A DNA stretch of 64,000 nt from the IMG/VR virus record IMGVR_UViG_3300045136_000267. The stretch is one strand, 5' to 3'. The translations under genes and the position numbers were made by a program. The notes under the pieces were generated by a model. The model did not search any database. It was not told where the DNA came from and worked only from the letters and a program-made list of their open reading frames with translations. This stretch comes from a virus. Positions 42 through 9,462 of this stretch are shown one piece after another (position 1 is the stretch's first letter; every line of letters begins with the position of its first letter).

Positions 42-629
42 GTGGATATTTGTTCTGACAAATATGTTGTCACTAAATCTGATTTAGTTACGTTTGTTTC
101 TTCTATTGGTGAGATGGAATTATTTGACGTGATTGGTAGGGAAGAATTTGATTCCAATAGAATTAAGAAAGAATTAGAGCATGTGGAAGCCACTACAATT
201 GCTGATCTAGTTCTAGATTATTTGAATTATGACTTTGATTCATATTTGCATGAATATGCGAAAGAACTTGGAAAAGAATTTGATGACTGCGTTGTTACTT
301 GTTCTGAGGAAACAGAATTTGCTGCCTCCGATATTTTAGATACTTGTAACACGCTACTTAGCGTAGAAGTTGCTATCAAACAATATTTTGATGGTGTAAA
401 TAAAGAATTATTTGGATTGTTTTGTGACAAACGTCGTCATTTTGATACCTTACTTCAGATGCAAGATAATTTGAATGTATTAGCTCGTTATGTAAATTTG
501 AATGAACTTAAAAATTGGCGTAAGCTTTGGAAGCCAAGGGTGAAGATTGATATCCCTTGGTGGCTTGATGGAACGCTGGAATTTCTGTGCAAGGATGCAC
601 AGAGAAAAGTTAAGAAAAAGAGTGAATAA
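42..629 (+). CDS. hypothetical acidic protein (may begin upstream of the window)
   Basis: 195-aa ORF; no recognisable motif. Confidence 0.65.
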   Translation: MDICSDKYVVTKSDLVTFVSSIGEMELFDVIGREEFDSNRIKKELEHVEATTIADLVLDYLNYDFDSYLHEYAKELGKEFDDCVVTCSEETEFAASDILDTCNTLLSVEVAIKQYFDGVNKELFGLFCDKRRHFDTLLQMQDNLNVLARYVNLNELKNWRKLWKPRVKIDIPWWLDGTLEFLCKDAQRKVKKKSE

Positions 630-652
630 ATAATTGGGTAGTTCCACCCAAG
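624..652 (+). promoter_or_regulatory. candidate phage promoter motif plus 5' hairpin
   Basis: gaataaataattggg overlapping hairpin ttgggt/acccaa, then RBS aggagg and ATG at 661. Confidence 0.5.
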
Positions 653-660
653 GAGGTGCT

Positions 661-960
661 ATGAAACGCTTTCCAGGTATTTGTTTCGTCTTCATTTTGT
701 TGATCCTGTCTGCTGGTAATTTGACGGTGTACGCTTCGAATAATGAATTGAACCAACCTCTTGAAAAGCAAGAGGTTATTAATATTTGCAAAGTGCTACT
801 TGATGGGTATATGACTTTTATGATTGAGAAGAATAATTGTGAGCGGCTTGCCGCTGAAGCACTTTATAAGCATTTGATCGAGCCTGCTAACGTTCTGTTG
901 AATCATTTGTTTCCAAAGTATGCGAGGAAAATGGAGTACAGATTTGTGCAGGATAAGTGA
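661..960 (+). CDS. small exported or membrane-anchored protein
   Basis: RBS aggagg precedes ATG 661; MKRFPGICFVFILLILSAGNLTVYA resembles a signal peptide. Confidence 0.7.
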   Translation: MKRFPGICFVFILLILSAGNLTVYASNNELNQPLEKQEVINICKVLLDGYMTFMIEKNNCERLAAEALYKHLIEPANVLLNHLFPKYARKMEYRFVQDK

Positions 961-966
961 ATTAAT

Positions 967-1008
967 AGCCCCAGGAAATTACTCCTGGGGCTTTATTTTA
1001 GCTAAAAC
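967..1008 (+). terminator. hairpin terminator with TTTTAGCTAAAA
   Basis: agccccagga/tcctggggct 10-bp stem then T-rich tail, right after stop at 960. Confidence 0.7.
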
Positions 1009-1024
1009 TGTTCAAGGAAGAACT

Positions 1025-1504
1025 ATGATTGATTCTGATTTCGAAATTATAGAACGAAATCTGAATAGTAGATTTATTTGTCGTAGTTCTTCTGTATATG
1101 GAGATTTAGCAAAAGTAATTTCTGTAGAGACTATACATAAATTGCATAACGGAGAACCTGTAACTATTTATGTTTGTCTCACCAGATACTTTTATCCTTG
1201 CATATTTATCTCTGATTCGAGAAAGGCTAAAGATTATTTATTAGATAAGAAAGCTAAATTAGAACTGACTATAGAGGAAAATGAATACTTTTCACAACGT
1301 GATGTATGCGTTTTTAATTCATTTATCATTTCTCTAAGCCCGCTTCATATGTCAGTTGATGATTTGATAGCCCATATTGGAGATATAATCAGCAATATTA
1401 CTGATTGTATAATTTATGTAATTAATAATAGAACTAAAGATACATTAGACTGGAGACTGGATTGTGTAACAAATGGAAAATATGGCATAAATAAGTGGAC
1501 GTGA
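1025..1504 (+). CDS. hypothetical protein
   Basis: ORF track 920..1504; ATG 1025 follows aaggaag and lies after the terminator. Confidence 0.6.
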   Translation: MIDSDFEIIERNLNSRFICRSSSVYGDLAKVISVETIHKLHNGEPVTIYVCLTRYFYPCIFISDSRKAKDYLLDKKAKLELTIEENEYFSQRDVCVFNSFIISLSPLHMSVDDLIAHIGDIISNITDCIIYVINNRTKDTLDWRLDCVTNGKYGINKWT

Positions 1505-1822
1505 GTCCACCCTCCTCCGGGAGGGTTTTAGGTTGGGTGCCAGAAACCCTGTAGCTGCGAGCACAGCTACATGGCGGAGGCTAACCGACGTGAGGGAGTC
1601 GGGGGTACATGCACAGCCCGGTATTCGACATGCTCGGGTCGAATACAAGGGATGCATGTGCCACGGGTTCGAGACCCAAAACCCCTCTTTTTAGACCTGC
1701 AGCGAATTGCCCTTTCTAGGGATGTCCCCGCGCTGCAGGTCGTTAACCTATCAAGGGAATCTCTGCCTTTTTTAGATAAAAAGGTAGGGATTGGGACGTC
1801 CCAGCCTGGCCGCTAGGCTTTA
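1495..1822 (+). ncRNA. candidate structured ncRNA or long structured leader
   Basis: GC-rich intergenic run of stems: gtggac-GTGA-gtccac, tgtagctg/cagctaca, gtattcgac/gtcgaatac, gacctgcagcg/cgctgcaggtc; starts at promoter-like ggcataaataagtgg (1484). Confidence 0.45.
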
Positions 1823-1838
1823 GTGGCAGGAGCTAGAT

Positions 1839-2531
1839 ATGAAGAACCTAAAAAACATTTGCACGCGAGTTGAAGCTCGGGAGTATTTGGAATCGCTTGA
1901 TTTGCCTGAGTCTGTAATTGAGGCGCTCTTGAAGGAGACCGCACTTGATCGACACAATTGGAGGACGAGTCGGGCACTTGAAGCAGCGAAAAATTGGGTC
2001 GTTAGTTGTTGGGGGATGGAGGAACATAAAATTGGGGAGTATGTTGTGGCGGCGCAGGTTAGCGCCGTCTTGCTTGCTGATTGCTTTGGTATTGGAGGTC
2101 ATTTGGGCGTTTCGGGTGCCGGCACTAAAAGACACCCGGCTTTGGTAGGCCTTGGAAAAGGCCGGAAGAATTGTAGTGATGGTCCAGCTTGGTCGGCGGC
2201 AATTCGCGCCGCCGTCGATAATTGTCGTGGATATTTTGCCCCGTCATATATGGATGGTATTTGCTTGGCTTATTATGTTGATTATTGGAATATGTTGACC
2301 CTGCTTAATTCGAAACTTATTCCATTTGAATGGCAATTGACGATTGCCCGTGAGGGGTTGAGGAGGTCCTTTGGGCTTGATCCTTGGTTCCCGGACTTGT
2401 TGGACTTTGTTAGGGCTGACGAGAACACTTGCACGGGTTGGGCTCAATTGGTTGACTACTTGACTGAGGAATTGGAAAAAGCAAGGCAACAAGCTGAAGA
2501 GGAGCAGCCTGAGGAGGCTGCTTCGACTTAA
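1839..2531 (+). CDS. hypothetical protein
   Basis: 230-aa ORF, RBS aggag, acidic C-tail. Confidence 0.75.
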   Translation: MKNLKNICTRVEAREYLESLDLPESVIEALLKETALDRHNWRTSRALEAAKNWVVSCWGMEEHKIGEYVVAAQVSAVLLADCFGIGGHLGVSGAGTKRHPALVGLGKGRKNCSDGPAWSAAIRAAVDNCRGYFAPSYMDGICLAYYVDYWNMLTLLNSKLIPFEWQLTIAREGLRRSFGLDPWFPDLLDFVRADENTCTGWAQLVDYLTEELEKARQQAEEEQPEEAAST

Positions 2532-2598
2532 TTGCTACGTATTATTTGTTTGGCTACTTGTTTTTTTAGCTCAAATATTTCGGAAAGGAGGGTTATTT

Positions 2599-3669
2599 AT
2601 GAAAATCTCTAGCATGCATCTCACTAATGTTGGTCCAATTAAGGATGCTCAAGTTAATTTTGGCGATTTAACGATATTATTAGGACCTAATGATCTAGGT
2701 AAAAGCATTTTTTTACAGCTATTTAGGCTAGCACTTGATTATGGATACATTAATGATGAATTAACAAAGTATGGAATAGATTGGAATGGTTCTTTATCTC
2801 TGTTTCTTGAATCGTATCTAGGAACTGGATTACAGAGCGTTTGGCAAAATGATAGTAGTATTAAACTAAATGGTAAGCCAATAAATTTGAAGCAAATGGT
2901 ACAAAAGCCAAGCAAAGCAATAGAACCCACTGTATTTTATATTCCCGCCCAGCGGCTTTTGATGTTCACCCACAACTGGATTAAACCTTTCACAGAATTT
3001 AGATATATGGATCCGTTTGCCATTAAAGATTTTAGCGAAACGCTCCGTAGGGCAGTAGATCATAGAATGATGAAGAAGAGAAATTATTTGAAGCCTTGGC
3101 TTTTGAAGGCAATTAGTAAGGATATTTTTGGAAATTTAAATTTAGATATTGCTATATATTCTTTTAGGAAAAGCATTGTGCTTGGAGATAGTAAGAAGGA
3201 TACTGTCATTCCTATTGATAATTGCTCTATAGGACAAAGAGCTTTTGTTCCTCTGCTTCTAGGAATTCAATGGTTATTGCATGAGGCAGCTGATAAGAAA
3301 GGTAATTCAATTAAGTGGGTAATTATTGAAGAACCTGAATTAGGTTTACAATTATGCACTCATTCTTCTCTCTTTTCTTCTATCTTTCATACATTATTTC
3401 TATTGATTACTGGGCTGCTTCAAAAGGGCTATAACGTTTGCATTAGTACACATTCTGAGCAGGTATTTGCTTTTGCTTGGTTAGCTCGTTACTTGAAGTC
3501 TTGCAGCAAATATCCGTCAGGATTGATTACCTGGCTTCAACCAAATAATTCAACGGAATTAGAGGATTCAGTTAAATATTTATGTAAAAGAAATGTTATG
3601 GTCTATGAATTTGACAATAGCGGGCTGGCTGCGGATATTTCACAAGAATATTGTCATAGTATGATGTAA
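2599..3669 (+). CDS. ABC-class ATPase (AAA_15/AAA_21, OLD/AbiEii-like)
   Basis: Walker A GPNDLGKS, signature-like SIGQR, Walker B/D-loop IIEEPELGL, H-loop STHS; RBS aaggagg. Confidence 0.85.
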   Translation: MKISSMHLTNVGPIKDAQVNFGDLTILLGPNDLGKSIFLQLFRLALDYGYINDELTKYGIDWNGSLSLFLESYLGTGLQSVWQNDSSIKLNGKPINLKQMVQKPSKAIEPTVFYIPAQRLLMFTHNWIKPFTEFRYMDPFAIKDFSETLRRAVDHRMMKKRNYLKPWLLKAISKDIFGNLNLDIAIYSFRKSIVLGDSKKDTVIPIDNCSIGQRAFVPLLLGIQWLLHEAADKKGNSIKWVIIEEPELGLQLCTHSSLFSSIFHTLFLLITGLLQKGYNVCISTHSEQVFAFAWLARYLKSCSKYPSGLITWLQPNNSTELEDSVKYLCKRNVMVYEFDNSGLAADISQEYCHSMM

Positions 3670-3700
3670 AACTGATTTTTTAGCATGGAGGTTTTGAGAA

Positions 3701-4012
3701 GTGAGCATTTATTTTCCGGTCGGCAAACCTAATATCATTAGATGGTATTCCCCTGACGGGAAGCACTCGGCGGTGCTACATGTGACGAGCACCACGAATC
3801 CGAGGGCTAATGATACCTTGACATTTTACTTCCGGGATTACAATGGTAACCCAGCGACAGCGCTTGATGGATTAGTTCTATCCTTAGATGGGGTCACCTC
3901 TGTCATTGGTACAGAGGTGCGGGCATACGTAGACAGGAATATATTAGCTACTGTATTTAGCCCTAAGATGACTTTGAAGGTAGGTAATGATATTTGGATT
4001 ATGAATAAATGA
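3701..4012 (+). CDS. hypothetical protein
   Basis: 103 aa, GTG start after ggagg. Confidence 0.65.
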   Translation: MSIYFPVGKPNIIRWYSPDGKHSAVLHVTSTTNPRANDTLTFYFRDYNGNPATALDGLVLSLDGVTSVIGTEVRAYVDRNILATVFSPKMTLKVGNDIWIMNK

Positions 4013-4141
4013 GATGAAGATAGTAGCAGGGGCCAGATGATCCCCTGACGGGGACAGGGGACACACGATTCAGCTGCATATAGTTTAGGCTTGATCGTAA
4101 TTCGATAATAAAATAAGATTATATCTAGCCCCCTCCTTGCG

Positions 4142-4185
4142 CCCCCGGTCGCGCCCTTGTGGCGTGGCCGGGGGTTTTTTATTTT
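4142..4185 (+). terminator. intrinsic terminator
   Basis: ccccggtcgcgcc/ggcgtggccgggg stem (G-U pairs) followed by tttttt. Confidence 0.75.
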
Positions 4186-4301
4186 CGCAGCTTCAAGCAT
4201 TTGCTTCTTTTTTAGCTCAATGAGAAAGAAGAAGAGGGGCTACTTGTTTTCGGGTGCCCGCATTCGGAAAGGCTTCTGGGGGCCAGACGAACGCGCTGCT
4301 A

Positions 4302-4341
4302 AGCTGGAATAAATAATTGGGAGGCCCCTGCTGTGGGGGCC
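4302..4341 (+). promoter_or_regulatory. candidate phage promoter motif plus 5' hairpin
   Basis: agctggaataaataattggg followed by ggcccct/gggggcc hairpin. Confidence 0.55.
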
Positions 4342-4373
4342 GATTTGAGTCCACGTACATAAGGAGCATAAGC

Positions 4374-4559
4374 ATGTACGTGGTTATCTTCTCGTATTCT
4401 GAACGGGGGCCGGTGCGGCGGCTCCCGTTCAAGGCTAAGAGCCGGGCTATTCGGGCGGCCCGGCTCCTTGAGAAGGCAGGCCTTCGGGCTTGCCTCATTA
4501 GCCCGTATCCCCTGCGGACTTCCCCGCAGGGGAACAAGGAAATGAAGCCCCGGGTTTGA
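4374..4559 (+). CDS. small basic protein
   Basis: ATG 4374 after aaggag; MYVVIFSY... resembles 4802..5014. Confidence 0.6.
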   Translation: MYVVIFSYSERGPVRRLPFKAKSRAIRAARLLEKAGLRACLISPYPLRTSPQGNKEMKPRV

Positions 4560-4570
4560 TCCTGGGGCGG

Positions 4571-4637
4571 CTCCTGGGAGGTCGGTCTCTACTCCCAGGA
4601 GTAAAAAGCATAGAGACCTTCTTTTTTAGCTAAAAAA
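4571..4637 (+). other. H-type pseudoknot followed by TTTTTTAGCTAAAAAA palindrome
   Basis: S1 ctcctgggag(4571-80)/ctcccaggag(4592-4601); S2 ggtctcta(4584-91)/tagagacc(4611-18); A-rich L3. Confidence 0.6.
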
Positions 4638-4732
4638 CAATGATTTTTTAGTTAATAATAAAAGCTAATTAGTTAGTAACAAAGCTAGTTTTTTTATAAG
4701 CAAGCTATAGCTGTATGGGCAAGGTAGGAAGT

Positions 4733-4772
4733 AGCAGGCATAAGTAATTGGAAGGCCTCCGCCGTGGAGGCC
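4733..4772 (+). promoter_or_regulatory. candidate phage promoter motif plus 5' hairpin
   Basis: agcaggcataagtaattgg followed by ggcctcc/ggaggcc hairpin. Confidence 0.55.
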
Positions 4773-4801
4773 GAATTCGTTCCGCGTCCGGGAGGGGAAA
4801 A

Positions 4802-5014
4802 ATGTACGCGGTGCTAATATACCATACGAAGGGCAGCGACCTGACAGGCCACGAGGTCGAGCGGGTGAACTTCACCACCCTCTCGGCGGCCGAGGAGGCC
4901 GCCGAGAAGGCTCAGCACGAGGGCAAGGATGCCATCGTGCTGCACATCATCCGCCAGCCCTACCGATTTACGGTAGGGCCCGACGGGATCATCCGGGACA
5001 TTGAGTGGTGCTAG
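4802..5014 (+). CDS. small protein encoded by high-GC DNA
   Basis: ATG 4802 after gggagggg; strongly G/C-ending codons. Confidence 0.7.
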   Translation: MYAVLIYHTKGSDLTGHEVERVNFTTLSAAEEAAEKAQHEGKDAIVLHIIRQPYRFTVGPDGIIRDIEWC

Positions 5015-5031
5015 CCGCTCGGTGTCCCACT

Positions 5032-5107
5032 AGCCCCAGCCGCGCCAGGACGGCGTTGCTGGGGCTTTCTTTTTTAGCACTAATCCCCTTACTTCTTTTT
5101 TAGCTAA
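5032..5107 (+). terminator. intrinsic terminator with two TTTTTTAGC motifs
   Basis: agccccagc...gctggggct stem, T-run, motif at ~5070 and ~5096. Confidence 0.75.
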
Positions 5108-5349
5108 AGAAAACAATATTTGCTTTTTAATTCATTACATTAACAACTGTTGTCATTATATAGCATACTTCCTTTCTTTATCGCTCTTTCATTTATAGCT
5201 ACCTCTCGCTCATTCTCTCTCTATCTTTACTGCTTTTATTCTATACTCGCATTCTATTAAAGGTAAGTAATAGTAACACATAATCGCCTATTGTATTATT
5301 GTTAATGTATATAGAGATGTATATTTATATTGTCTATGGATTATTCAAT

Positions 5350-5835
5350 TGCTTATTTATATATATCACTCTTCTAGAGTAGATCTTATATTTAAGCTAC
5401 TATGAATGACAAGCATGGATAAGCACTCCTTCGCTCTTCTATATATATAGCTCGCTTGTTTGTTATACATTGCTTATTTCTATGTTACTCTTTGAGAGTA
5501 AATATATCAGTCATTATTACTGAAATGATAAACAGAGATAAGCACTCCTTCGCTCTTCTACGTATACATATTCAGCTATAGCTATCGTCTTAATGTACTT
5601 AATATGCTTATCTATATATTACTCTTCGAGAGTAAATATGATATTCAATCTATTATGAATGATGGATATGGATAAGCATACACATACTCTCTCTTATATA
5701 TCTATATCTCCTTTTTAATATACTTAATTTGCTTATTCCTATGTTACTCTTTGAGAGTAAACATATCATTCATATTTCTGGAATGACAAACAAGTTTCTG
5801 GAATGACAAACAAGGATAAGTACTCACTCTCTTCT
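5350..5835 (+). repeat. four degenerate structured repeats
   Basis: units start at 5350, 5471, 5605, 5730: tgcttat...actct-NNN-agagta...aatga...gataag(c/t)a. Confidence 0.85.
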
Positions 5836-6249
5836 ATATATTCTCTCTCTTCTATCCATCGCTATTACCGCTCTCTCTTCTATATACTTCTACGATACAG
5901 CTTCCTCCCAGGAGTAATATCTCTCTTAGAAGCAGCTAATAGCTATGCAGTTGAATGCTATTACTTACTTAGTAATTATTATTGTTAATAACGATAGAAA
6001 TCTAATAAAAATGAGCAAAAAAGTCGTTTTATAGGAAGCCCGTTTTAGCCACGAAATTAAAAATAGGTATTAGAGATCGTTGAGTGCTAGCGGGCTCTAG
6101 AACGCTTCCTATTGCGTTTAAACGCATGCTTTGCTGTCTCAAAATGAGACTTCGCTCCTCGAAGGAAAATTTCCAGTCTCAATAAAAATCCTAATTTTCA
6201 CTAAAAATTTCCCAGAAAATTTGCCCTAACTTAGAATTGCTCTTGACTT

Positions 6250-6280
6250 TTGACACTTTTTCTGGGAGAAAAAGTGTCAA
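6250..6280. repeat. perfect 14-bp inverted repeat
   Basis: ttgacactttttct-ggg-agaaaaagtgtcaa. Confidence 0.9.
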
Positions 6281-6423
6281 CTTTTGATAATCAACACAAC
6301 TTACGTCAATTCCTCCTATCACTTTCCATCCTTTCCAGTCAGTCTCAATAAGAATTTTAGTTATTAATGTTAATCAACTTAGTAATGATTCATAATAATA
6401 GTACTCAAGATATCCCAGCACTA

Positions 6424-6540
6424 TTACTATTGTAAGCAGATTACTATCGTAAACTAATTACTATCGTAAACTATTATTGACGTAAACTAATTACTGACGT
6501 AAGCGATATTACTATCGTATACTATCGTATACTATTGCAT
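6424..6540 (+). repeat. tandem ~17-bp iteron-like repeats
   Basis: ttactatcgtaaacta(a)-like units, five near full-length plus shorter tactatcgta copies; one inverted core ttacgtcaat at 6301. Confidence 0.85.
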
Positions 6541-6656
6541 TAGCGATAAGTAGCAGCCTTTGAGTAGCTGCTTAAGTTATCTTAGGTCGGCTTAAGAGCG
6601 CCGCCAAAATTTTCACCTCCTGCATATGAAGACACCCCGCACGGGGGTAGAAGGGG

Positions 6657-6965
6657 GCTAGCCAAGAAGAGAGAAAAGAGTATCCATTTATTATTCTATA
6701 CAGATATCAATGTATATAAACAGCCAAAAGAAGAGAAGAGAGTATCTATTTATTCTATAGCCAGCTATAGAATAAAATAAGTATACAGTTAGCTACAAAC
6801 AGAATAAGAACAAAAGCTAGCCAAAAGAAGAGAGAAGAGAGTAGCTATCATCCTGTATAAAGATAGAAATGTATATAGGCAGCCAAAAGAAGAGAAGGTA
6901 GTATCTATTTATTCTATACAGCTAGTAATGTATATAGGCAGCTAAATATAAGAGAGAGCGACTAT
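6657..6965 (+). repeat. purine-rich ~60-bp degenerate direct repeats
   Basis: gccaa(aa)gaagag...agta units at 6661, 6723, 6820, 6882 and a weaker one at 6941. Confidence 0.8.
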
Positions 6966-7066
6966 AGAAAGAACAATTATTTTAGCTAACTATAAACAGA
7001 ATAGACATGCAGCTAATAGCTATTAGTAATGAAGTATAAAGCAAAGGCCAGGAATAAAAGCAAAAT

Positions 7067-7092
7067 AGCTGGCATAAATAATTGAAAAAAGA
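7067..7092 (+). promoter_or_regulatory. candidate phage promoter motif
   Basis: ggcataaataattgaaaaaaga; identical 22-mer at 9359. Confidence 0.5.
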
Positions 7093-7381
7093 AAAGAGAA
7101 TTATAGAAGCTAATAATAGTAGCTTCTTCTTTTTATAGCAGAGGGCTATAAAAAATTTTAATAATGTTGGCAGCCAAAGTTAATTGCTAGTAAGTTACTA
7201 TGAATTAGCACTGAATTTTATGTTAAAATAGTTAAATAAGGGAGCATAGGAAAGCTAATATTTATTAAATTTCACTTATCAAAGAGAGTAAGCATCCCTC
7301 ATAGGAAAAATTGGATTTTTGAATTTTGGGAATTGATTTTAATTTAAAAGAGTAAAGAACTGATTCTTTCGTTTATTTCGT

Positions 7382-7804
7382 TTAATCGAGATTTCTCTCG
7401 TTTTTATCCATTGCTTCAAGCAGCTTCTGTCTGAATAATTTGGAAAGCAATTTTGCTTGCTCTTTAGTAAGATCGACTCTAAGCTCTCTTCGGCCTTTAT
7501 TGCCTTTAGTGGGCGCTTTCTTGGCAGCGGCTTCTATAGCGGCTATAACTGGCTTGAGCTGCTGCTGTATCCTTGGATCGCCGTTAAAGATCTCACTTAG
7601 GAATTTAGCTGCCATTTCAGCAAAATTATTATTACCAACCGTTAAAGTTCTAGCAGCATTTCTGCCTCTTCTTCTAGCAATACCTGCTTCCCTTTCAGGT
7701 ATATCCAAATCTTCATCCTCAGTAAATAACAGATAGTTTTCATTACTAGCACGCTTAAGCATATGCGTACAATAAAGCAATAAAGGTTCGAGGTAGCTGC
7801 TCAT
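7382..7804 (-). CDS. basic hypothetical protein with K-x-A leader
   Basis: 140 aa; N-terminal ...MLKRAS; only Cys lies in the leader. Confidence 0.65.
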   Translation of the reverse strand: MSSYLEPLLLYCTHMLKRASNENYLLFTEDEDLDIPEREAGIARRRGRNAARTLTVGNNNFAEMAAKFLSEIFNGDPRIQQQLKPVIAAIEAAAKKAPTKGNKGRRELRVDLTKEQAKLLSKLFRQKLLEAMDKNERNLD

Positions 7805-7937
7805 TTAAAGTTACTCCGGACAGGTCGAAGGTCGAAGACATGAAGCCTCTTCGCAGGCATAAAGTACAGCTCAAATATTATGCTTTACTCCTTAGCAGTA
7901 TCTGATTTAGAATAATACGTAGCTTAGCATTAATACA

Positions 7938-7970
7938 GTCAACTACCCCCGACTGAAGTCGGGGGCTTCC
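7938..7970. mobile_element. orphan IS200/IS605-family (TnpB/IscB-type) terminal hairpin
   Basis: gtcaactacccccgactgaagtcgggggcttc matches the typical GTCAACTACCCC-hairpin-GGGGCTT end; no tnpA/tnpB/iscB nearby. Confidence 0.7.
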
Positions 7971-8044
7971 GCGCTGGTGATGCTGTGAAAGTAAATTGTA
8001 CCCCTTTGCTGCTATTGCTATAAAGAGCAAAAATCAGAAAAACT

Positions 8045-8296
8045 ATGCTAATGGATCCTGCTTTTTATGCGGAAGCTTTGCTTTGGGAGAAGCTAGCTTC
8101 TGAGGAGCTTAACCTCCCCGAAAGTATGGATAAAAATTTGGAGAAGGAAACAGCGGCAAAGAAGAAACCTAAAAAACCACTTTCCTGGTACGATCATCTA
8201 AATATCCAAACCTGGTCCTTAATAGGCATACTAATGGGGATAGCATTATCCCGAGCTTGGAGCAATGAATATGCTCGGCTAACTCAGAATCAATAA
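8045..8296 (+). CDS. small virion-candidate protein, K-x-A leader, one TM segment
   Basis: AFYAEALLWEKLAS leader; WSLIGILMGIAL. Confidence 0.65.
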   Translation: MLMDPAFYAEALLWEKLASEELNLPESMDKNLEKETAAKKKPKKPLSWYDHLNIQTWSLIGILMGIALSRAWSNEYARLTQNQ

Positions 8297-8339
8297 TTAA
8301 AATTTATGGCATAAACTAAAAAACAGGAGCAGTAATAAA

Positions 8340-8699
8340 ATGAATGCAAACACCAAAGCTTACATAGAAGCTTTATTAGCTAATGAATATTTAATTAAGC
8401 AAGCATCGGAAAGACGTTCCCGTAATCGTTCTGAAGATTCCGAAGAGTACGTAGATCCGGATTTTGAGCTTCCTAGAAAGATAAATGTTGGTAAGTCTCT
8501 GAATATTGGTTCTTTACTAGGTGTATTAGCAGGATTAACGCTTGGAGTGGTCTTTGGAGATAAAATAAAAGGCGGTTTGGGTTATCTACTGCCCAGAGCA
8601 TCTGGCGGTGGCGATGCGCCTCCAGCTCCTCCAACCACAGACGCCCCCGCAGGTATTTTAAACCCGGAGCAACCTATTGACGTTGATGCTTTTATCTAA
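8340..8699 (+). CDS. small virion-candidate protein, K-x-A leader, Gly-rich TM segment
   Basis: AYIEALLANEYLIKQAS; IGSLLGVLAGLTLGVVFG; RBS aggag. Confidence 0.7.
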   Translation: MNANTKAYIEALLANEYLIKQASERRSRNRSEDSEEYVDPDFELPRKINVGKSLNIGSLLGVLAGLTLGVVFGDKIKGGLGYLLPRASGGGDAPPAPPTTDAPAGILNPEQPIDVDAFI

Positions 8700-8777
8700 A
8701 TTTAAGTTCATCTGTAGCGTTGTAATATGATCGTTTCTCCTATTCTTTACAAAGAACTTTAGATAACTTGGTGTTTT

Positions 8778-9299
8778 ATGATAGGATTTAATAAGCAAGC
8801 TTTCCTAGAAGCATTAGTTTTTGACGAATTAATTAAAATGGCTGATGCGGCTACACAGCCAGAGGCTGCACCAGAGGTCCAGCCGGAGGCTCAGGCACCT
8901 GCTCCGCCTGCTGCCCAAGAAGCTGCCGCAAAAGATGCGCCGGCAGAAGGTGCAGCTAATGCTGACAATGCTGCGGATGCCGCGAAGGCTGATAATGTCG
9001 CGGATGCTAATAAGGCTGATAAAGCCCCTGATGCTAATAAGGCTCCTGCTGCTGATAAGGCTGAAACCACACAACCAGAGTCCGCCTCTCCTGGAGAAAT
9101 GGTTCCAGTTTATACTCCTACTAAAAGGGAAAATAATGCACAAGTACCATATCAAGATATTTTAGGTCGTACATATCATGGAGGAGATCAAGCAACTCCA
9201 CAGGTGGCATCTTACACGGGCCACGTTCCTGAGGTATCATATCTAGCAGCGCCCTTTGACGTAAGTTTTAATACAGGGCAAGTGAGGACGGTGGGATAA
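8778..9299 (+). CDS. Ala/Pro/Asp-rich virion-candidate protein, K-x-A leader
   Basis: KQAFLEALVFDELIKMAD; DANKA-type repeats. Confidence 0.7.
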   Translation: MIGFNKQAFLEALVFDELIKMADAATQPEAAPEVQPEAQAPAPPAAQEAAAKDAPAEGAANADNAADAAKADNVADANKADKAPDANKAPAADKAETTQPESASPGEMVPVYTPTKRENNAQVPYQDILGRTYHGGDQATPQVASYTGHVPEVSYLAAPFDVSFNTGQVRTVG

Positions 9300-9358
9300 T
9301 TCTGTCTTTTAATGCGCTACAATCCAGTCCTAATCTTTAAATTATGTAACAAATTTGA

Positions 9359-9462
9359 GGCATAAATAATTGAAAAAAGATAATAAAATAAAAAATCCTA
9401 CTAAATTTGTAGGATTTTTCCTATTCAGGATTTAGTCGTAAATATACGGCATAAATAGATGG
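9359..9462 (+). promoter_or_regulatory. two promoter-like motifs flanking a hairpin
   Basis: ggcataaataattg (9359), aaaaatcctac/gtaggattttt hairpin (9391-9419), ggcataaatagatgg (9448). Confidence 0.45.

Follow-up and report, generated by a model that had tools for sequence, protein, structure and literature searches.

The gene-free hub and its surroundings

The window analysed here, the whole stretch of 64,000 nucleotides given above, belongs to the IMG/VR virus record IMGVR_UViG_3300045136_000267. It has a GC content of ~33% and contains 60 long open reading frames (ORFs), all of them on the plus strand save a few overlaps; the sole minus-strand gene lies at 7382-7804. Two ORFs of 1467 and 616 aa match phage multisubunit RNA-polymerase (RNAP) beta-type PHROGs (beta/beta'-like), and the 1467-aa protein shares 31% identity, in an alignment that covers 95% of it, with proteins of Salmonella phage Arash and Vibrio phage D69. 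Its nearest cultured relative, Gp206 of phage Arash (31% identity), is the most abundant protein of the Arash virion (PMC10585845); the phage of the window probably packages its own RNAP. The longest public contig carrying proteins of this phage measures 164,580 nt. A blastn search of INPHARED with 5000-7400 returned zero matches, a 70-aa upstream protein used as bait for relatives matched only itself, and a 598-aa protein recovered one cluster among 1.8 billion representatives and none in IMG/VR. Together, the ORF layout, the RNAP matches, the likeness to Arash and the negative database results identify the source as a large uncultured AT-rich phage of virulent type.

A scan of metagenomes yielded a single true relative, the contig L080, the other 27 matches being conserved gut coding sequence or chance. 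L080 is syntenic with the window from 1846 to 8323, with an identity of ~85% across the upstream ATPase gene and ~75% across 4208-6718. Searches with the 140-aa product of the minus-strand gene recovered the same phage in four further contigs (L048-L051, 99.9% identical), as well as two other contigs (L046 and L052), which end before the array. Over 2.4 kb, the sole difference among four independent samples of the phage is the length of a (TA)n run at 5439 (one extra TA).

The genes upstream of this region have features of their own. The ATPase encoded at 2599-3669 (AAA_15/AAA_21) has an OLD/AbiEii-like N-terminus and may be a phage-carried defence-type gene; its nearest non-phage kin are widespread bacterial proteins at 35-40% identity, and as bait it recovered two short phage contigs, the remainder being these bacterial proteins. 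Two GC-rich islands (1400-2400 and 3700-5070) reach 50-58% GC, and the second holds two small genes, at 4374-4559 and 4802-5014, each with a promoter-like motif and a terminator.

Following a strong terminator at 5032-5075, the window contains a 2.3-kb ORF-free stretch (5070-7380; 30% GC), which we call the hub, and whose left part is occupied by the array of repeated units analysed in this work. Beyond the array, no credible ORF was found on either strand before the minus-strand gene at 7382, which adjoins the hub. Its 140-aa product is basic and has homologues only in the clade of the window phage; it has no Pfam or PHROG match and no usable match in the protein atlas, and Foldseek found no match for its poor AlphaFold model (pLDDT 63). 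The elements of the hub outside the array are as follows.

5302-5329, plus strand: conserved TTAATGTATATAG box, 36 nt upstream of unit 1
5985-6420, unstranded: hub core, ~95% identical to L080, with flanking genes at 75-85%
6423-6535, plus strand: 17-nt iterons ATTACTATCGTAAACTA, 5.7 copies, then 10-nt repeats; L080 has only ~three copies
6657-6946, plus strand: purine-rich repeats GCCAAAAGAAGAGA... and then AATGTATATAGGCA, mirroring the CT-rich linkers of the array

At ~95% identity, the hub core therefore exceeds the genes in conservation. A perfect 14-bp hairpin lies within it at 6250-6280, as does a further hairpin (6137-6151) with the loop AAA here and TTT in L080. The folding energy of the core is -94.4 kcal/mol on the minus strand (z -2.9) and -73.3 kcal/mol on the plus strand (z -1.95), and we regard it as a candidate non-coding RNA (ncRNA) or dense cis element. 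GC and AT skews reverse sign near 6600, and a 20-nt inverted repeat (5119-5138 / 7026-7045; 90% complementary), both arms of which are kept in L080, brackets the hub.

Two promoter-like motifs were encountered in the region. Boxes similar to TTAATGTATATAG, all on the plus strand, precede units 3 and 4 by 16 nt and recur at 6709, 6868 and 6927; on sequence grounds the box is a possible promoter, and the pattern is only a lead since it was derived from the sites listed. A scan for sigma-70 promoters did not rise above shuffled sequences (27 vs 19.6 +/- 5). A second motif resembling GGCATAAATAATTGG occurs on the plus strand only and at gene boundaries (623, 1484, 4306, 4737, 7071, 9359 and 9448), with 15 matches at <=3 mismatches against 3.1 expected. 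It probably represents the early promoter class of the phage, a kind of class that is usual in large RNAP-encoding phages (PMC7598289). The notion that the array itself is the recurrent promoter-like motif of the phage was rejected, as GGCATAAATAATTGG is present 7 times on the plus strand (623 to 9462) and never in the array.

Architecture and conservation of the four units

Four tandem modules of ~75 bases each, all on the plus strand, occupy 5350-5822 in the gene-free stretch. Each is built from an outer inverted repeat TGCTTAT/ATAAGCA, a hairpin ACTCT-3-nt loop-AGAGT and a second hairpin based on TGAATGA, and is followed by a CT-rich linker. The bit scores listed below are those of a covariance model (CM) derived from the units.

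5350-5425, plus strand: unit 1; arms 5350-5356 / 5419-5425; hairpin ACTCT-TCT-AGAGT at 5368-5380; second hairpin ATTTA/TGAAT; CM 88 bits
5426-5470, plus strand: linker 1, CT-rich, with the (TA)n run
5471-5544, plus strand: unit 2; outer arms extended to 11 bp; hairpin ACTCT-TTG-AGAGT at 5487-5499; second hairpin GTCATT/AATGAT in shifted register; CM 89.5 bits
5545-5604, plus strand: linker 2, CT-rich, unalignable with L080
5605-5678, plus strand: unit 3; outer stem extended to 13 bp with one U.G; hairpin ACTCT-TCG-AGAGT at 5621-5633; second hairpin ATTCA/TGAAT; CM 95.6 bits
5679-5729, plus strand: linker 3, CT-rich
5730-5822, plus strand: unit 4; arms TGCTTAT/ATAAGTA with one G.U; hairpin ACTCT-TTG-AGAGT at 5746-5758; second hairpin TCATTC/GAATGA; CM 82.4 bits
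5823-5900, plus strand: CT-rich tail 3' of unit 4, with CTCTCTTCTATAT repeats

A sequence check located all four units where the original prediction had placed them, with the arms TGCTTAT/(G)ATAAG(C/T)A starting at 5350/5419, 5471/5538, 5605/5672 and 5730/5816, and the inner hairpins ACTCT-(TCT/TTG/TCG/TTG)-AGAGT at 5368, 5487, 5621 and 5746; the pyrimidine-rich linkers said to follow the units were likewise found. A third stem had been described as clear in units 2 and 4, partial in unit 3 and not evident in unit 1. The first part of this description holds, but the stem is in fact present in all four units, as the second hairpin listed above (in unit 1 with one U.G), and it uses two registers on the conserved 3' word TGAATGA. 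Measured by their outer arms, the units span 73-76 nt, except for unit 4, where an exact tandem duplication of 20 nt (5775-5814) brings the length to 93 nt. Linkers measure 44-60 nt, and the spacing between units (119, 134 and 125 nt here; 122, 162 and 128 in L080) shows no helical phasing.

The hairpin motif ACTCTT-NN-AGAGT, allowing <=1 mismatch, has 10 matches in the 64 kb against 2.4 expected, a count of >=10 being reached in 0 of 100 shuffles, and 8 of the 10 are the four array hairpins counted on both strands. The covariance model detects no further copy of the unit in the window; across the window, its relatives and every fetched locus it finds eight copies only, four here and four in L080, and pattern scans of IMG/VR gave chance matches alone, none of which the model scores. 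Two phages carry the module so far.

In L080 the four units (R1 to R4) keep their order and place. When the two phages are compared, their linkers defy alignment almost entirely, and the blocks that are kept are TTGCTTAT, TTACTCTT-NN-AGAGTAAAT, TGAATGATAAACA and GATAAGCA. Units 1 and 3 have their nearest match in the positional counterpart in L080 (81% and 88%). Unit 2 is 83% identical to unit 4, and R1-R3 are 83-84% identical to one another, so some concerted evolution has taken place. Two units of L080 depart from the common form: in R3 the 5' arm word (TTGCTTATCTATA) is tandemly expanded to ~4 copies with a 13-bp period, and in R4 the outer stem is degraded and has two A.C mismatches, with an alternative 7-bp pairing GCTGTTT/AAACAGC being possible.

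When the eight units were submitted to RNAalifold, the consensus was a three-helix junction of 24 pairs. Standard pairs fill 93.8% of its 192 cells, against 32-48% when the partners are slid by 1-3 columns, which shows the complementarity to be real. Between orthologous units, 25 of 192 paired positions differ (13%), as do 34 of 103 unpaired ones (33%; Fisher p=1e-4), the stems evolving 2.5 times slower than the loops. Invariant columns make up 30 of the 48 paired and 5 of the 25 unpaired columns, and eleven pairs, including all five of the ACTCT/AGAGT stem, show no variation at all. The triloop and the loop of hairpin 2 are variable, three small indels fall in the junction and in the hairpin-2 loop, and in unit 2 and R4 a displaced 5' arm preserves the complementarity of hairpin 2. 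The nested layout A [P P'] [B B'] A' that a three-way junction requires occurs 8 times in the two phages. The multi-stem architecture originally proposed is real and retained in a second phage, and its stems are clearly under purifying selection.

Variation within the stems had also been described as G-U-compatible, and this does not amount to covariation. A two-sided change, as expected of a covariation-proven structured RNA, occurs in 1 of the 24 pairs, and every measure matches the shuffled control, the values observed for the eight units being reached by 249-327 of 500 shuffles. Covariation is absent because the stems are conserved as sequence, and the alignment, whose data points are few and not independent (two phages, with concerted evolution visible), is unable to separate an RNA fold from conserved palindromes.

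The strand of the fold was assessed through folding energies and through the mismatches that the stems tolerate. Single units fold better than shuffled RNA about equally on both strands (z -2.3 to -3.6 on the plus strand; -1.2 to -3.4 on the minus strand). The consensus energy is -10.85 kcal/mol on the plus strand against -6.34 kcal/mol on the minus strand, the latter including a covariation penalty, and the z-score of the whole array is -4.3 against -1.5. The G.U deviations quoted for the outer stems of units 3 and 4 were correct, and the leaning of such deviations towards the plus strand is seen both in the non-Watson-Crick cells (21 G.U vs 4 A.C, read on the plus strand) and in the orthologue changes that keep pairing on one strand only (10 plus vs 2 minus), counts that carry the bias of a 24-pair set obtained by folding the plus strand. 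On pairs with a Watson-Crick majority, which were chosen without strand bias, the G.U excess falls to 7 vs 3 (p=0.34). The internal pair 20/39 occurs as A-U, G.U and G-C among units. We take the data as weak to moderate backing for folding of the plus strand. Folded as DNA, the units have energies of -8 to -11 kcal/mol; units 2 and 3 outperform shuffled sequences (z -3.0 and -4.0), and for units 1 and 4 no significant difference is seen (z -1.7 and -1.6).

Comparison with known elements

The original prediction had suggested a comparison with Rfam, and no such family is present there: at the gathering threshold, Rfam 15 has 0 matches in the whole window, and in permissive mode 5000-7450 gives only a chance match to DnaX (E 0.51) outside the array. 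ARAGORN predicts 0 tRNA or tmRNA genes in the window; the units share with tRNAs their size and a 7-bp closing stem, but have two internal arms only.

Several phage and plasmid systems bear a partial likeness to the array, which qualifies as a member of none of them. The promoters of the N4 virion RNAP have a 5-7-bp stem and a 3-nt loop with a purine at its centre on the template strand, and this shape is found in 8 of 8 units as ACTCT-NNN-AGAGT, the centre loop base being C or T on the plus strand and a purine on the minus strand. N4 hairpin promoters are, however, read by a giant single-subunit polymerase, whereas the polymerase genes of this phage are beta/beta'-like; no N4-type giant virion RNAP is present in the 64 kb examined of a contig of at least 164 kb, where the largest ORF (1467 aa) is of the multisubunit beta type. 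The hairpin is here, moreover, embedded in a larger closed module and has no gene downstream. The pRNA of phi29 is a small phage RNA in which pairing of the 5' with the 3' end closes a three-way junction that carries two hairpins, and it acts as a multimeric protein-binding scaffold. It is the product of a single gene of small phi29-like podoviruses and multimerises via complementary loops, whereas the array has four copies in cis, and no consistent pRNA-like complementarity between triloop and hairpin-2 loop was seen by eye. CsrB/RsmZ sponges and ToxI arrays also consist of tandem short structured RNA units that each bind one protein copy. The GGA loop motif of the former is not conserved in the units (by eye). 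A type III array like ToxI was rejected: repeats of ~34-45 nt (~36 nt for ToxI) would be expected upstream of an endoribonuclease toxin gene, and here the period is 119-162 nt with no ORF following, and no toxin family was matched among the neighbouring genes (Pfam, PHROG).

Among DNA elements, the single-strand initiation signals (the ssi of G4 and phiX type, ssiA/ssiB of RSF1010 and the sso of rolling-circle plasmids) resemble the units in being orientation-specific multi-stem structures of one DNA strand, beside iterons and tolerant of G.T. They are single, or paired on opposite strands, whereas the array has four same-strand copies with no mirrored partner and weak DNA-fold energies. An iteron origin would combine tandem direct repeats of ~17-22 bp, an AT-rich region and an adjacent initiator gene. 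The hub has iterons at 6423-6535, 600 bp from the array, and a GC content of 30%; no initiator was recognised, the 140-aa neighbour being uncharacterised, and the four units are not iterons themselves. DnaA boxes (TT(A/T)TNCACA), sought by eye in the units, reach at best 8/9 (TATGGATAA in unit 3) and 7/9 (TTATCTATA), and none is conserved across units; nor were Fur, IHF or DnaA boxes seen in the units by eye. In T5, Repeat Regions 1-3 (the injection-stop region) are untranslated repeats of the early region that are more conserved than genes (Davison, bioRxiv 10.1101/866236). They share with the hub the setting of a kilobase-scale gene-free stretch in the early region of a large virulent phage. 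Their elements, though, are read as duplex sites, with paired DnaA boxes at a fixed 52-bp spacing (bioRxiv 10.1101/866236), while the array is a regular tandem of nested three-stem modules without sequence similarity to them.

An origin as a host look-alike (CRISPR repeat or host site) was also considered. In GTDB the palindrome has 108 matches, mostly in one conserved coding region of Chitinophagaceae/Saprospiraceae, the 3' motif has none and the combined motif has 3 chance matches; among GTDB sequences, a copy of host sequence is ruled out. Judged by sequence and structure, the element forms a new family; examples of its kind, conserved non-coding hubs rich in repeats in large lytic phages, have been known before.

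Interpretation of the array

The explanation that we tentatively prefer, at somewhat less than even odds, is that the units are tandem three-way-junction RNAs that would provide repeated docking sites for a sequence-specific protein. Under this model, four tandem modules of 73-93 nt would act as a folded plus strand, most likely as RNA. The two ends of each module would pair into a closing helix of 8-13 bp (GCUUAU/AUAAGC), which would carry a 7-10-bp hairpin with an invariant ACUCU/AGAGU stem and a free triloop, and a second hairpin of 5-6 bp pairing onto the conserved UGAAUGA; the junction would hold the conserved unpaired AUGAUAAACA, and single-stranded CU-rich linkers of free length would space the modules. 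Each module would be read by a sequence-specific protein of the phage or the host, and the array would thus form a multivalent docking platform (a scaffold or a sponge) produced from the early region of a phage equipped with a multisubunit RNAP of its own. A folded single strand, and in the first place an RNA platform, is favoured by the nested layout, by an inner geometry that stays fixed (73-76 nt) while the spacing floats (119-162 nt), by the positions of the indels, by the shifted register of hairpin 2 and by the strand asymmetry; the conservation of the stems in sequence rather than by compensation points to likely recognition by a sequence-specific protein. From these patterns we infer the strand, the RNA nature, the transcription and the protein partner of the platform. 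The upstream terminator, which isolates the hub, also fits an RNA, as does the beta/beta'-like RNAP of the phage. Against it stand the two A.C mismatches in the outer stem of R4 and the nil covariation, as well as the iterons, the bounding inverted repeat and the skew switch, which resemble a cis-acting DNA region; no promoter or terminator was established for an array RNA, the early-type motif being absent from the array. It is rather unlikely that the array represents a previously undescribed class of phage ncRNA in a narrower sense, four cis-linked three-way-junction modules made early, which would form a multivalent viral sponge or scaffold RNA by titrating or organising a nucleic-acid-binding protein of host or phage.

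A duplex-DNA function is the main rival and only a little less probable: the units would be protein-binding modules of double-stranded DNA (a nucleoprotein of ~75 bp) in a cis-acting hub serving as an origin, a packaging or terminal region, an injection region or a regulatory region. A dimer would bind the 17-bp palindrome TTACTCT-N3-AGAGTAA, and the further sites would be the inverted words TTGCTTATC / GATAAGCAA as well as the TGAATGATAAACA box. Stems that are invariant in sequence around a free 3-bp centre are what classical operators look like, and the nil covariation also fits them; the 2.3-kb ORF-free hub, with its 17-nt iterons, mirrored purine/pyrimidine repeats, GC/AT-skew switch and 20-nt bounding inverted repeat, has a core that outconserves the flanking genes as do the untranslated repeat regions of T5 (bioRxiv 10.1101/866236), and the only minus-strand gene of the window abuts it. 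The tandem expansion of the TTGCTTATCTATA word in L080, with its 13-bp period, would be no less compatible with a DNA-binding site than with an RNA. On the other hand, to explain three inverted repeats per unit, nested or adjacent, one would have to invoke several distinct dimeric binders, or coincidence. The spacing of the units is unphased, indels of 1-2 bp fall between the supposed sites, hairpin 2 keeps its complementarity by shifting the 5' arm and not by keeping the word, and a strand-asymmetric tolerance of G.U type (10:2) is meaningless for a duplex; in the adjacent 140-aa protein, no DNA-binding family or fold could be recognised. Stem invariance, the hub context and the word expansion in L080 are the reasons why duplex modules come close behind the RNA platform. 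The duplex-operator reading, against which the original prediction had argued, is weakened by the nested repeat layout but keeps an appreciable, if minor, probability.

The same single-strand evidence would serve plus-strand DNA structures in an unwound hub, acting in priming or single-strand initiation or as extruded hairpins for a polymerase or terminase, and we consider these improbable. Strand asymmetry and stem conservation count equally for them, iterons lie 600 bp away, units 2 and 3 fold better than shuffles as DNA, and the stem of 5-7 bp with its loop of 3 nt is shaped like the N4 promoters; yet the DNA energies are low and not significant in units 1 and 4, there is no mirrored opposite-strand copy across the iterons, unlike in origins of RSF1010 type, the RNAP encoded in the window is multisubunit and not of the N4 single-subunit giant type, and four tandem copies are unexpected for a priming signal. 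More improbable still are selfish or decaying small repeats, MITE- or REP-like with terminal inverted repeats and without function for the phage. The units do have terminal inverted repeats of short length, a tandem arrangement, duplications nearby and traces of gene conversion, as such repeats would, but L080 shares their number (4), their order and their position despite linkers beyond alignment, and the stems evolve 2.5 times slower than the loops; the marks of a MITE/REP-like mobile repeat were not found, there being only four tandem copies and no others in the 64 kb, no target-site duplications in the flanks and no transposase family among the neighbours. That the units encode minus-strand micro-peptides is scarcely credible. 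A minus-strand open stretch of 25-31 codons runs through 8 of 8 units, unit 1 has AAGGAG followed after 9 nt by ATG, and every unit's frame ends in ...TL(K/E)E-stop inside the hairpin; the start codon is nevertheless confined to unit 1 (elsewhere CTG, ATA or none), a Shine-Dalgarno-like word is seen in 2 of 8 units, the orthologous unit 3 and R3 are frame-shifted relative to each other, and stops are as frequent on the minus strand as elsewhere. The unconserved start codons and Shine-Dalgarno words and the frameshift led us to reject such mini-ORFs.

In large lytic RNAP-carrying phages, gene-free hubs are better conserved than genes, and the function is known for almost none of them. What the present case contributes is a repeated module that is well defined, whose stems are clearly under selection and for which a strand is predicted. 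If the tandem three-way junctions act as RNA, as we tentatively prefer, they would constitute a new viral multivalent RNA; if they act as DNA, they would mark the origin, terminus or control region of a phage lineage without a cultured member. Either way, the analysis supplies exact coordinates and motifs for mapping and binding work.
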